64,000 nt of DNA from Ignavibacteria bacterium (lineage in GTDB: Bacteria; Bacteroidota; Ignavibacteria; UBA10030; SZUA-254), in NCBI GenBank assembly GCA_016178595.1, contig JACOSY010000053.1:114-64113 (forward strand). The letters are read 5' to 3'. The position numbers and the translations under genes are program-made. Every line of letters begins with the position of its first letter. Position 1 is the stretch's first letter. This document shows positions 52,884-55,376 of this stretch, piece after piece. The notes beneath the pieces were generated by a model that worked only from the letters and a program-made list of their open reading frames with translations, was not told the origin of the DNA and searched no databases.

Positions 52884-52973
52884 AGAGTTTTTCCTTTCTA
52901 GTTATGTGTATAATGAATTTGTCCTCGCACCCCGCTTGCGTACGAGAGGGATAGATTGCATCCGGCAATCCCA

Positions 52974-53273
52974 TTATCGTGACGGAACGCGAGGTAACAG
53001 TAAGAACGAGATGGAAGGATCGGGATCCTTTTGAATAGATCCTTCCGAGCGGAATGATTCCCGATATGATATAGCTCCGGCTTCAATTAGTATGCCACCG
53101 ACTTCGTGTGCTGAATGAGTGTACGGAATAGTCATGACAGAATCAATTTCTGCCTCTGTCAGGACGAGAGAGCGGCGAAGGCTGCCTCTCGGAGATGAGA
53201 GACGTTTCTTTTTCCGGAGATGAACCACTTTGTTGACGTCAACAACATGATTAGAATCGAAGTGGAGTTTCAT
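52974..53273 (-). other. DinD-like gene fragment / remnant ORF with the conserved HxVDxNK motif
   Basis: [19 protein letters not shown].. mirrors the [14 protein letters not shown] core of the adjacent DinD-like gene; encoded by the palindrome TTGTTGACGTCAACAA (53230-53245); the remainder has no homology. Confidence 0.3.
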
Positions 53274-54148
53274 GGTTTCCCTTTACTGCCGTTCTTTTTC
53301 TTTGGCAGCTTCTTGACGCTCCCGAGCATTTTTTTATCTTCCGATTCAACCCGGCGTTTTAACTTTTTTACGTCTTCGTCAGGCGGCAACGCCTCGGGTC
53401 GTATTCCTCTATCAAGAAGAACCCTCCTCACACCTTCATTGCTCTTCACATGCTCTTGAGATATTCTTTGTTCTCCTTTTAGTTCATCTCGCTTAACATT
53501 GAAGTTGGTAATTTCGGTGGCAAAGTCTTTTGCCTTGATGGTAATGGTTGGAAGGAAATCTGCCAACGCTCTGCTCTGAGGCACTCCGAGCTTATCCTTC
53601 ATCTCGTGCGTTGCGTACCCGCCGAACAATGCTTTGTCTCCTTTGCTTCTGATGCGTGCAAATCCTTGCTCATCAACTCCTCGCTCATAAATCACACCCG
53701 AAAGTTCTCGTTCCGATTGAGTAAGTTTTTCCCGTGCTCGTAACCGCTCCCACTCGGTCAATCGTTTTTCCAGTATTTCTTGTTTACGAGTTTGAACGGC
53801 AAAGTAGCTCATGGCAAAGGCGATTTGATCTTTCCGAGGATCGCCATTTTGAGCTATGAGGTAGCAGGCGTAGCGGGTAAGCATGATGTCGTCGATTTCG
53901 CGTTGTGCACTCTTCCCAAGGTCGATCATTTTGTTGATATCAACAAAATGATCATCAATAGATTGTCCCGCGCTTTTACAGGCGATCTTTGCTTTCTCAA
54001 CAACCTGTGAAAAATTCCTCCACTCTGAATAGCCAAGCAGCTCTTGTAATTCCCTCGCAAACCAAAATTCTACTTCGTCGGTCTGACGAGCAGCTGTTTC
54101 AAAGTTATTGGTAAGCTGTTTAATGAGTTCTGATTTCATAAGGTTCAT
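53270..54148 (-). CDS. dinD: DNA damage-inducible protein D (DinD)-like protein
   Basis: 292 aa; N-terminal ...[98 protein letters not shown] matches the DinD pattern as I recall it; low GC (~42%) versus flanks. Confidence 0.6.
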
Positions 54149-54188
54149 CAGATTGTCTGAACCGCTGATGAATGTGATACAATGATTT

Positions 54189-54700
54189 TCATGATGGTTG
54201 CTTCAGGCGTCGTGCTTGAAGTTTTCGCTCGTTGGTGAGTCTCTTGAATTCCAGTTTTCTCGACCCGAAATTGACCAACAGACCGATTTCAAGATTGTAG
54301 GCTTCCAGATAATTTAACCCTTGTGCAATGTGAACATTTTCCAAATTGGTGAGTGCTTTCAACTCGACTAAAATTTTCCCTTCAACCAAGAAGTCTGCGC
54401 GGCGGGTTCCGATTTCCTGGCCGTCATAGTGAATAGGCATTTCGACTTCCCGGGCGAACTCAATACCGGCTTTGCTCATCTCGATTGCCAGCGCGCGCTG
54501 ATCAATAATTCCTTGTGCCGAAGGCATCCCTTCGGGAAAATCCATTCCCACGTGTGTTGTGTACGTTCATTGCACATCCGATAATCTTTTCCGTGATCGC
54601 CGAGAATTTGTACTCTTCTTTTATCATGTTCATCATTCCATCATAGGCATCAGCGGTTCTGACGTCTTCTACTCTTGGTTGGAATCGTAGACCTACAGAC
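54189..54700 (-). pseudogene. GxxExxY-family (PD-(D/E)xK-like) gene split by a 1-nt frameshift in a T4 run
   Basis: Frame A (54552-54700) encodes MNMIKEEYKFSAITEKIIGCAMNVHNTRGNGF (conserved N-terminus) and stops; frame B (54189-54551, GTG-initiated) encodes ...QRALAIEMSKAGIEFAREVEMPIHYDGQEIGTRRADFLVEGKILVELKAL...GLLVNFG (rest of the family); the junction is at ggatttTcccgaagg, inside a CCGAAGG/CCTTCGG hairpin. Confidence 0.6.
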
Positions 54701-54725
54701 TAGAAGAGTGTTTGGGTTGTTGTTC

Positions 54726-55112
54726 TTACCTGCTCGTTGATTTATTGAGTAACCGAGTCAGCAAACTTGCTCCAAGAATAATCAGCCCCCCAACGGCAAT
54801 TGCTCCTACTACGCTCTCGACTTGCCGCTCGACCTTCTTTCTATGACGAACTTGCCTGATTGGTTCAGCAAATTGCCTGAATTGTCCTGTGGTCAAGTCA
54901 CTCTTGTCGAGGTTACATGACCAGCAGGATGCAACAAGATTGTTGAGATGGTCTGTTCCACCACGAGCGTGCGGCCTGCTATGATCGATTTCCCAGCCAC
55001 CCCGAAGGTCTCTCCGTCCGTAGTTTTTCCAAGCCAGTTGTTTGCCACAATGGTGGCACTTGCGCACGGACTTTTCAAACACGAGTTCAATAGTTTCATT
55101 GTCAAACGCCAT
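54726..55112 (-). CDS. HNH endonuclease with C-terminal transmembrane anchor
   Basis: CHHCGKQLAW...WEIDHSRPHARGGTDHLNNLVASCWSCNLDK is a classic HNH motif; C-terminal VGAIAVGGLIILGASLLTRLL is a predicted TM helix. Confidence 0.7.
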   Translation of the reverse strand: MAFDNETIELVFEKSVRKCHHCGKQLAWKNYGRRDLRGGWEIDHSRPHARGGTDHLNNLVASCWSCNLDKSDLTTGQFRQFAEPIRQVRHRKKVERQVESVVGAIAVGGLIILGASLLTRLLNKSTSR

Positions 55113-55376
55113 CTGTTACCTCCTAGCTCATTCTGTTGTGTTCTTCATATCGACCTAAACTCTACATAGTGTGAAAGGTACAAAAATGAGAGGACACTGG
55201 CAATTCGTTCTCTTGCTCGGTAGGTCAGACATTCTTGTCTGACAGGTAGGAATGCCTGTCCTACCAAAAGATTTTTGTTAAATCGATGCACTACCTCCTA
55301 CTCCTTGTGAATTCCCTAATTCCTCCGTACATTGGAATCAATATTTTCGTAATTCATCTTCAAGACGTTCTACGCT

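Follow-up and report, generated by a model that had tools for sequence, protein, structure and literature searches.

The window analysed here is a 64,000-nucleotide (nt) stretch of an Ignavibacteria bacterium genome (assembly GCA_016178595.1, contig JACOSY010000053.1, positions 114 to 64,113 of the forward strand), in which an islet of lowered GC content lies between gdhA and cydA at 52884-55376. On the minus strand, the islet contains a gene for a 128-aa HNH endonuclease with a C-terminal hydrophobic helix (54726-55112), a GxxExxY / PDDEXK_3 pseudogene (54189-54636), dinD, encoding DNA damage-inducible protein D with an N-terminal Bro-N domain (53270-54148), and the open reading frame (ORF) ORF99 (52974-53273). 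A 30-bp perfect palindrome lies inside dinD at 53924-53953, and a second, degenerate copy of it lies at 53223-53252, 18 nt past the dinD stop. We found that the two-fold symmetry of this DNA, that is, its self-complementarity, is itself under constraint, that this constraint shapes the conserved DHFVDVNKMV peptide of DinD via paired amino-acid changes, and that the palindrome coincides with rearrangement junctions.

The 30-mer, GATCATTTTGTTGATATCAACAAAATGATC, encodes ten residues of DinD on the minus strand and occupies codons 66-75, codons 70 and 71 meeting exactly at its centre. When all perfect palindromes of the window were enumerated, there were twelve of 12 bp, four of 14 bp, two of 16 bp and the single 30-mer, which is the sole palindrome longer than 16 bp, and by an arithmetic estimate ~6 × 10−5 30-mers and ~1 16-mer would be expected in 64 kb. 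The perfect 16-mer TTGTTGACGTCAACAA at 53230-53245 is at chance level by its length, yet 14 of its 16 positions equal those of the 30-mer core, and it extends to the imperfect 30-nt copy at 53223-53252, in which 12 of the 15 pairs are Watson-Crick and two are G·T. Searched with the palindrome model, the window gave this copy as its only other match (19.7 bits, E 0.16). The initial annotation, made from the sequence of the window, had reported both palindromes, the longer one inside dinD and the related shorter one past its stop, and their coordinates are exact.

To follow the site beyond the window, 80 dinD loci were fetched, one genome per species, whose products are 61–84% identical in amino acids to the window protein and which come from more than ten phyla, among them Bacteroidota, Beta-, Gamma- and Deltaproteobacteria, Verrucomicrobiota, Saccharibacteria, Chloroflexi, Chlamydiae, Planctomycetes, Elusimicrobia and ANME-2/Methanosarcinales archaea (loci are cited below by their numbers in our set, L004 and so on). 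The ten codons aligned with window codons 66-75 were extracted and scored for the 15 complementary pairs. In 79 of the 80 homologues, 12–15 of the 15 pairs were present (15 in 16 loci, 14 in 26, 13 in 25 and 12 in 12), with a mean of 13.5 pairs against 9.2 expected from the fixed peptide and the gene's own codon usage; when synonymous codons were redrawn with the peptide held, p was ≤0.05 for 89% of the loci. The question raised by the initial annotation, whether other dinD homologues keep the palindrome at the same codons, was thus answered strongly in the positive, both in these homologues and in the E. coli-type clade described below, and altogether the same ten codons are palindromic in ~160 dinD genes of many phyla, including that of Escherichia coli K-12. 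In all, dinD homologues number at least 583 hits in genomes and 405 in viral sequences. The palindromes are not chance occurrences and are features at the level of nucleic acid, in keeping with the earlier suggestion of binding or recombination sites. The GATATC, GACGTC and TGATCA cores pointed out in the same annotation show no special role, the centre pair being the least constrained position.

The pairing is preserved through changes in sequence, as the sites comprise 55 distinct 30-mers that encode 35 distinct peptides. Codons 4 and 7 of the site co-vary as reverse complements, being GTT/AAC (V..N) in 38 loci, GCT/AGC (A..S) in 16, CCT/AGG (P..R) in 6, GCC/GGC (A..G) in 3 and TCC/GGA in 1, and codons 1 and 10 are either GAT/ATC or GAC/GTN, with the paired position never mixed. 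In L082, CAA/TTG (Q..L) replaces CAT/ATG, and L083 has GGC/GCC at the palindrome centre. Codon choice at the site is skewed, with CAT, TTT and GTC used in 99%, 98% and 97% of cases versus 63%, 66% and 25% gene-wide; among degenerate residues, only one other dinD column reaches this level of bias (E7, GAA 90%), and the silent sites flanking the palindrome are not conserved in the nucleotide alignment. Across the alignment, 94.2% of cells were paired, compared with 24–55% when the partners were slid by 1–3 columns, and 98 cells were compensatory versus 29 ± 11 in shuffles. Changes on both sides were found in 8 of the 15 pairs, and pair 3 is CG in 49 sequences and TA in 32, with zero mismatches.

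The site is also present in the E. coli-type clade, whose identity to the window protein is 36%. In dinD of E. coli K-12 it reads GACCATTTCGAGGAG followed by ATCCTCGATATGGTC, the whole site being GACCATTTCGAGGAGATCCTCGATATGGTC, and encodes DHFEEILDMV with 13 of 15 pairs. The 80 members of this clade taken from viral contigs give 46 distinct sites with a mean of 12.2 pairs versus 8.5 expected, and 18,551 other in-frame 30-nt windows of E. coli-type genes had a mean of 3.8 pairs and a maximum of 11. The clade adds the complementary pairs ACC/GGT, GGT/ACC, GCG/CGC, GTG/CAC and GTC/GAC, together with TAT/ATA, in which H changes to Y together with M to I, and a paralogue in L050 has a perfect palindrome encoding DHFEDILEMV. 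One full-length E. coli-type lineage on viral contigs (L359, L364-L366, L368 and L369, site at ~1650–1690) has lost the palindrome, with 4 of 15 pairs, and has also lost the near-invariant H, K and M (DNFGEVTSFT). Because these residues disappeared with the palindrome from a gene that is still full length, their conservation elsewhere suggests selection for the DNA rather than for the protein.

To distinguish DNA from RNA as the level of constraint, we applied a wobble test to the synonymous third positions in the arms, in which each possible codon was classed by the pair that it forms with the fixed partner. Watson-Crick pairs had an observed/expected ratio of 2.14, against 0.12 for G·U on the sense strand, 0.04 for A·C and 0.11 for the remaining mismatches. 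The tolerance of G·U expected of an mRNA structural element was thus lacking, and since wobble is rejected as strongly as non-pairs, the prediction for an mRNA helix is not matched, so the constraint looks to be at the level of DNA rather than that of a simple mRNA hairpin. The wobble result fits a duplex required to be exactly two-fold symmetric, a hairpin or cruciform of DNA, or templated correction from arm to arm. A hairpin would be stable in both nucleic acids, the calculated energies being −11.9 kcal/mol as DNA and −16.5 kcal/mol as RNA for the window site, and −12.8 and −20.7 kcal/mol, respectively, for the E. coli site. Searches of the islet and seven viral loci against Rfam 15 returned only sub-threshold miRNA-hairpin noise and one tRNA, and for an intrinsic terminator there is no T-run after the dinD palindrome, nor did terminator scans at three upstream copies give any.

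Copies outside the coding site were sought both by scanning directly for palindromes and with a covariance model built on the site. Stand-alone copies lie 17–35 nt before the dinD start codon in L027, L042, L052, L060 and L078, and other upstream copies occur in L075, L009 (two copies) and, weakly, L005; some are perfect, and their surroundings are without dinD homology. An upstream copy was found in 8 of the 80 loci, comprising 7 of the 39 with an upstream spacer of at least 100 nt plus L078, where the gap is 72 nt, and the inner sequences of the upstream and internal copies match in about half of these loci. In the streptococcal satellite prophage Javan727, dinD adjoins the integrase gene, one copy (TTTTGTTGATGTCAACAAA) overlaps the −35 element of a TACAAT promoter-like site, and a second lies inside dinD. 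Apart from this −35 overlap and the upstream copies just described, the window and most loci are without a promoter-overlapping second copy. Copies also follow the dinD stop in the window, in L205 and L326 (at ~80–100 nt) and in L310.

Pattern scans of viral contigs matched CCATTTYNNNGAYRTCNNNRAAATGG in at least 120 contigs and the unbiased core TTTGTTGACGTCAACAAA in at least 120, where by our own estimate ~1–3 matches to each would be expected by chance. Among the matches examined, 3 of 80 and 10 of 69, respectively, lay within DinD-like genes, and the rest were in junk ORFs or intergenic DNA. In the non-coding copies, 72% of the pairs in the unconstrained inner triplets are still complementary (25% expected), with all three inner pairs complementary in 22 of 67 sites (1.6% expected), and in core-only matches the outer arms vary yet remain complementary (CAGT/ACTG, CAAT/ATTG, CGAT/ATCG and CCAT/ATGG). 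The motif thus has an existence of its own outside the gene.

Two or three copies whose inner sequences differ stand in tandem in L224, L195, L235, L176 and L177, the order in L224 being tyrosine integrase, three copies and amidase. In phage EJ-1, two copies lie after the endolysin terminator and before attR; they are ~280 nt away from the core of attR as annotated, a distance at which we rejected identity with the att core. One copy in L222 lies 9 nt from a tRNA, and 14 related phages, including L430, have a copy 1.7 kb from an integrase. The neighbours of free-standing copies are heterogeneous, with no consistent gene family among them, Bro-N and HTH genes included, and the copies are slightly more frequent than expected after gene ends. 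One family of 121-aa phage ORFs, with the peptide HHFEDILEMV, was set aside as probably a chance match to the protein motif, as its 11–13 of 15 pairs are about the number forced by the pattern. Separately, a group of related viral contigs (L174, L181, L228 and L243 on the plus strand; L209, L229 and L232 on the minus strand) has near-identical flanks for ~60 nt on each side, which contain the hairpins ACCGTCTC...GAGACGGT and GTCCCCGAAA...TTTCGGGGAC. The inner triplets of their palindromes differ from contig to contig, non-complementary hybrids included, and the variation is concentrated at two variable positions in either arm.

The second palindrome of the window is part of a rearranged region that can be read against L004, the closest relative, whose dinD is 84% identical to that of the window. 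There, the order is H+-PPase, mod (two ORFs), an intact GxxExxY gene, dinD, an 882-aa type III Res and fumarase, the 882-aa ORF being a ResIII plus endonuclease protein, and the res start overlaps the dinD stop in both L004 and L005. The start of ORF99, TGAAACTCCACTTCGATTCTAATCA, is common to L004 (6572) and L005 (6478). Codons 1-9 of ORF99 (53247-53273) are the 5′ end of res, after which an ATCA microhomology leads over into the palindrome copy of 30 nt, AATCATGTTGTTGACGTCAACAAAGTGGTT (53252-53223), and this is followed by unrelated sequence that extends to the gdhA upstream region. ORF99 has no family match in profile searches and is probably not a real gene; what had been taken for a DinD-like remnant ORF is a chimera of nine type III res codons, a dinD-type palindrome copy and unrelated sequence.

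An A-run and a hairpin follow the window copy, as they do the palindromes of the dinD fragments in L005 and L006, and seen from the opposite strand the sequence directly next to it reads as a putative terminator-like hairpin with a T-run (53184-53213, plus strand). A tblastn search of the window with the L004 Mod and Res proteins found no other res or mod remnants. A type III restriction-modification system comprises Mod and full-length Res, both of which L004 has, and the window retains only nine res codons. The second palindrome marks the junction at which res was deleted. Because ORF99 fuses nine res codons to a palindrome copy, the islet is a ruined type III restriction-modification island in which dinD has stayed intact, not a new three-gene system. 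The initial annotation had offered a degraded or a novel defence module; its degraded half is supported by the L004 layout, by the remaining nine res codons and frameshifted GxxExxY gene, and by HNH-plus-tail homologues that close other defence operons, and its novel combination of HNH, GxxExxY and DinD is not supported, as only the GxxExxY-dinD adjacency recurs, in one relative.

Junctions at the palindrome are not confined to the window, as N-terminal dinD fragments in L005, L006 (two) and L060 end their homology 0–2 nt from the palindrome 3′ end. Directly upstream of the fragment in L005 (4450-5200) lies a Y1 transposase gene resembling those of IS200 and of the transposases associated with repetitive extragenic palindromic (REP) elements (RAYT), and in front of this gene stand three small hairpins of REP-like form as well as a degenerate palindrome of the dinD type, GACCATGTTGTTGAGGTTATCAAAAGGGTA. 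A link to IS200/RAYT was considered and rejected, the Y1 transposase being found only beside this fragment.

By every sequence test applied, the window protein belongs to the DinD family. It matches NCBIfam NF008573 with 364.4 bits (cut-off 242), residues 4-281 aligning with positions 1-287 of the 288 in the profile, and Pfam PF02498 (Bro-N) over residues 24-111 with 44.3 bits versus 25.6. It also matches the PADLOC candidate PDC-S13 (PDLC04919; 391 bits, E 5e-118), of which we found no mention in the searchable literature, and was the only one of the three islet proteins that PADLOC recognised. The true start of dinD is probably the second ATG at 54139 (MKSEL...), where the 289-aa NCBI product and the 21 other homologues in our alignment A1 also start. 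An 8-bp inverted repeat, TTCATCAG...CTGATGAA (54140-54175), spans the first ATG of the ORF.

The GxxExxY pseudogene consists of two overlapping ORFs (54502-54636 and 54189-54551), of which the C-terminal piece matches TIGR04256/PDDEXK_3 with 102 bits (cut-off 35) and the N-terminal piece with 18 bits; relative to the intact 138-aa gene of L004, the frame is broken by an insertion of ~20 nt. The insertion holds a small hairpin, CCGAAGGCATCCCTTCGG, at 54518-54535. The HNH protein matches PF01844 with 38.5 bits versus 21.4, the pattern CHHC...DH...NN...CWSC is readable in its translation, and its hydrophobic stretch comprises residues 101-119 (Kyte-Doolittle mean 2.29). Homologues with ~60% identity, tail included, close other defence operons, as the last gene of a type I hsdR-...-hsdM-hsdS operon or of a HerA/SMC-like/PD-(D/E)xK operon (L370, 6001-6405; L373, 6001-6390), which suggests that the HNH-plus-tail protein is a recurrent accessory gene of defence operons. 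Profiles and hydropathy agreed with the three gene identities first read from the translations, giving DinD, a broken nuclease-fold GxxExxY gene and a small HNH protein whose tail is hydrophobic.

GC content is 45.6% in the islet and 51.6% on either side, with 55.1% in the adjoining gdhA. The steeper contrast described initially (~42% versus ~58%) compares extremes, the minimum of 300-nt windows being 41.7% inside the islet and the maximum 58% in the flanks. The islet as a whole is a decayed restriction-modification or defence island. An identical locus is present on three other assemblies. In metagenome relatives of gdhA, the nearest at 85% identity, gdhA stays beside the gene for a 994-aa regulator, and cydA, dinD, HNH or GxxExxY adjoins gdhA in none of the nearest (≤85% identity); no relative was found that is close enough to place the ends of an indel at this junction. 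The pair of gdhA and the 994-aa response-regulator/PPDK_N protein (window 48370-52883) is conserved in dozens of these relatives (L087-L166), in which the islet-facing side of gdhA is variable. The spacer upstream of cydA contains a pair of neighbouring perfect hairpins, GTCAGACAttctTGTCTGAC and GGTAGGAatgcctgTCCTACC (55218-55264), which are REP-type in look and are present as a single copy in the window.

In the 80 genome loci, the neighbours of dinD are mostly co-directional with it, 64 of 72 upstream and 56 of 68 downstream. Upstream neighbours include HsdS (12) and N6_N4 methylases (10), and downstream neighbours include 20 ResIII proteins, nine of them HsdR; dinD stands between M/S and R genes in ~30% of loci. 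A published survey likewise lists a dinD-domain coding sequence between type I core genes (PMC9881135), and a dinD-like gene has been described in a pneumococcal phage-related island (PMC10602874), where E. coli DinD (PcsA) is cited as an SOS-induced RecA modulator (Uranga et al. 2011, as cited in PMC10602874). The window DinD resembles E. coli DinD as an NCBIfam equivalog, and the corresponding codons of E. coli dinD likewise form the palindrome. E. coli dinD, however, is solitary and lies behind a visible LexA box, whereas the window's clade is largely found in restriction-modification operons of types I and III. The dinD genes of L009 (Bacteroidia) and L027 (Desulfuromonadales) have a common upstream palindrome copy and N-terminal third and diverge after codon 85-109, the strongest recombination signal in the set. 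A triplet scan (3SEQ-like) of 79 dinD genes, low-powered because the sequences are too diverged, returned 12 significant triples, whose breakpoints fall at codons 85-109 and 256-275 and thus outside 66-75. Neither Foldseek against the Protein Data Bank (PDB) nor a PDB sequence search found a solved relative of DinD.

Among known elements, the dinD palindrome resembles lac O2 in lacZ, gal OI in galE, parS in spo0J/parB and the roadblock cre and PurR sites, all symmetric DNA sites inside an ORF, sometimes with a promoter-proximal copy a few hundred base pairs away, and with a coding sequence that accommodates the site. Unlike the dinD palindrome, such intragenic operators are conserved in sequence, without compensatory symmetry and without hundreds of free-standing copies across phyla, and to our knowledge no intragenic operator dictates a conserved peptide motif across a whole protein family. 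With integron attC sites, the element shares the priority of complementarity over sequence and a place at gene-cassette boundaries, and attC sites are read as folded DNA. However, attC sites are 57–141 bp long and imperfect, with extrahelical bases and R boxes (R″/R′, RYYYAAC/GTTRRRY), lie outside ORFs and need IntI; the dinD element is 26–30 bp long, perfect and unbulged over its 30 bp in the window, in frame and without an integron integrase, and there is no integrase in the islet.

REP elements and bacterial interspersed mosaic elements (BIME) with RAYT are also short intergenic palindromes, sometimes in tandem, and a RAYT-like Y1 gene lies beside the L005 fragment. REPs, however, are species-specific, high-copy and imperfect with a 5′ GTAG, whereas the dinD motif is low-copy, cross-phylum and mainly in coding sequence, with two copies in 64 kb, no GTAG and a Y1 transposase in 1 of ~250 loci. 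The promoter-stem-loop cassettes of T4-type phages, whose small cargo genes are flanked by repeated stem-loops at which recombination has been proposed to occur, have promoters and terminator-type hairpins and belong to one phage group, unlike an in-frame coding palindrome. Resemblances to parS, FNR, Rex, CodY, hix and C-box sites were considered and rejected on half-site sequence or spacing. The element is not an attC site, a REP, an Rfam family, a terminator, a parS site or a LexA box. By analogy, it seems most like an embedded operator or a structure-read recombination site, yet it differs from both, as it is in frame, held by compensatory codon pairs across domains of life and duplicated as free-standing phage copies. 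We found no description of the dinD palindrome in the searchable full-text literature, sequences included, although most subscription journals lie outside this coverage and a prior description is possible.

Taking these observations together, we tentatively favour the palindrome as an ancient cis-acting, symmetric DNA site inside the dinD coding sequence that is read by a protein and serves as an intragenic roadblock or operator. The symmetric duplex, or a cruciform extruded from it, would be bound by a two-fold symmetric protein, for which DinD itself is the candidate through Bro-N, its predicted DNA-binding domain, because DinD is the only partner that always travels with the site. A protein bound at this point of the gene, ~+195, would present a roadblock, or the site would be an auto-regulatory operator, for dinD itself and for the restriction gene often found behind it, and in a minority of loci a second copy 17–35 nt before the start codon would pair with the intragenic site. 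The arms would be kept identical by selection for symmetry, probably aided by template switching from arm to arm (quasi-palindrome correction), and the hairpin-prone site would double as a rearrangement breakpoint. In the window, the element sits in an intact dinD that was left stranded within the decayed type III island, with the second palindrome at the res deletion junction.

Several observations weigh against this reading. Binding of DinD to the palindrome sequence is something we purely infer, and the double changes at many arm positions are a better fit to a structure, or to mechanical homogenisation of the arms, than to a sequence-specific operator. The upstream copy is found in just 7 of the 39 loci with promoter room, with inner sequences that match the intragenic site in about half, and promoter scans at three upstream copies were uninformative. 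In the neighbour survey, Bro-N genes were not linked to the free-standing phage copies, which were not enriched before gene starts versus random intergenic positions. The AlphaFold model of DinD has a pLDDT of 58, with the N-domain alone usable, and places the motif in a β-strand with low confidence.

The site may instead be a functionless, self-perpetuating quasi-palindrome, in which template switching copies tolerated changes between the arms and protein selection on DHF..KM slows decay, which we consider doubtful. Quasi-palindrome correction is an established mutational mechanism in E. coli, strict Watson-Crick pairing without wobble is exactly the product of templated correction, covariation occurs at nearly every variable position, and one lineage has lost the palindrome with its gene intact. 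However, such correction leaves unexplained the hundreds of free-standing copies of the same consensus in unrelated phage intergenic DNA, the tandem arrays and the copies flanking dinD, as well as the origin of a 30-bp in-frame palindrome and its retention in lineages whose synonymous sites are saturated elsewhere.

We regard as rather unlikely, too, a hairpin or cruciform recombination site, folded in single-stranded or supercoiled DNA, through which a structure-specific recombinase or nuclease, or replication slippage, would move dinD and neighbouring cargo into and out of restriction-modification operons and prophage cargo regions, much as integron attC sites or shuffling stem-loops do. Such a site would account for the conservation of complementarity rather than sequence, for gene fragments and a deletion junction that end exactly at the palindrome, for hybrid inner triplets in closely related phages with conserved flanks, and for copies near integrases, att sites or tRNAs (L224, L430, EJ-1 and L222). 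It would also suit the scatter of dinD over phyla at 61–71% identity (the two closest relatives at 80–84%) and its frequent position between M/S and R genes. On the other hand, no consistent recombinase accompanies the site (~10 of 143 neighbours, the Y1 transposase once), the palindrome is not the att core in EJ-1, the breakpoints of the triplet scan, which has little power, lie elsewhere in dinD, and the fragments in L005, L006 and the window share flanks and may therefore go back to one or two ancestral events.

Distinctly unlikely in our judgement is that the palindrome is the primary entity, a structure-read element that spreads or maintains itself, as its free-standing copies in phage and island DNA suggest, and that has been in frame in dinD since before the E. 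coli-type and Ignavibacteria-type genes split, dictating DHFVDVNKMV. In the most extreme version, the Bro-N domain of DinD would bind the site; if so, the operator would encode part of its own reader, and site and protein would change together by construction.

An mRNA hairpin with a 13-bp stem and a 4-nt loop, controlling dinD or the downstream res/hsdR as an RNase III site or a translational pause, for example, is quite improbable. It would be very stable as RNA (z about −6, with the energies given above), covariation is present, and some upstream copies would lie in the 5′ untranslated region. Its prediction fails, however, in the equal rejection of G·U and non-pairs; GAT...GTN combinations occur in 0 of 81 sequences and GTT at codon 6 in 1 of 81, free-standing copies lie between convergent genes and in both orientations, the Rfam search gave no family and the stem lacks a following U-tract. 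We give almost no credence to HNH, GxxExxY and DinD as a (degraded) novel defence system with the palindromes as its recognition sites, a reading largely refuted already by the context survey, since, although all three genes are associated with defence islands and the GxxExxY-dinD adjacency recurs in L004, HNH is never next to dinD in the other loci examined, the palindrome is kept in dinD genes with quite different neighbours, E. coli included, and GxxExxY is a pseudogene in the window. The remaining probability belongs to explanations that we have not considered.

For the window, these results reclassify the islet as what is left of a type III restriction-modification island. More widely, dinD, a classic SOS gene of E. 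coli, often travels in restriction-modification operons, in satellite prophages and in defence islands, and because E. coli K-12 carries the site, the question of what the palindrome does is directly testable. Judging by the free-standing copies, phage and island DNA may contain a class of short palindromic elements that has gone unrecognised and is linked to the gain and loss of genes or to regulation. For the DinD family itself, the DNA, and not the protein, may be the reason why part of the "conserved motif" is kept, which calls for caution in motif-based prediction of function.

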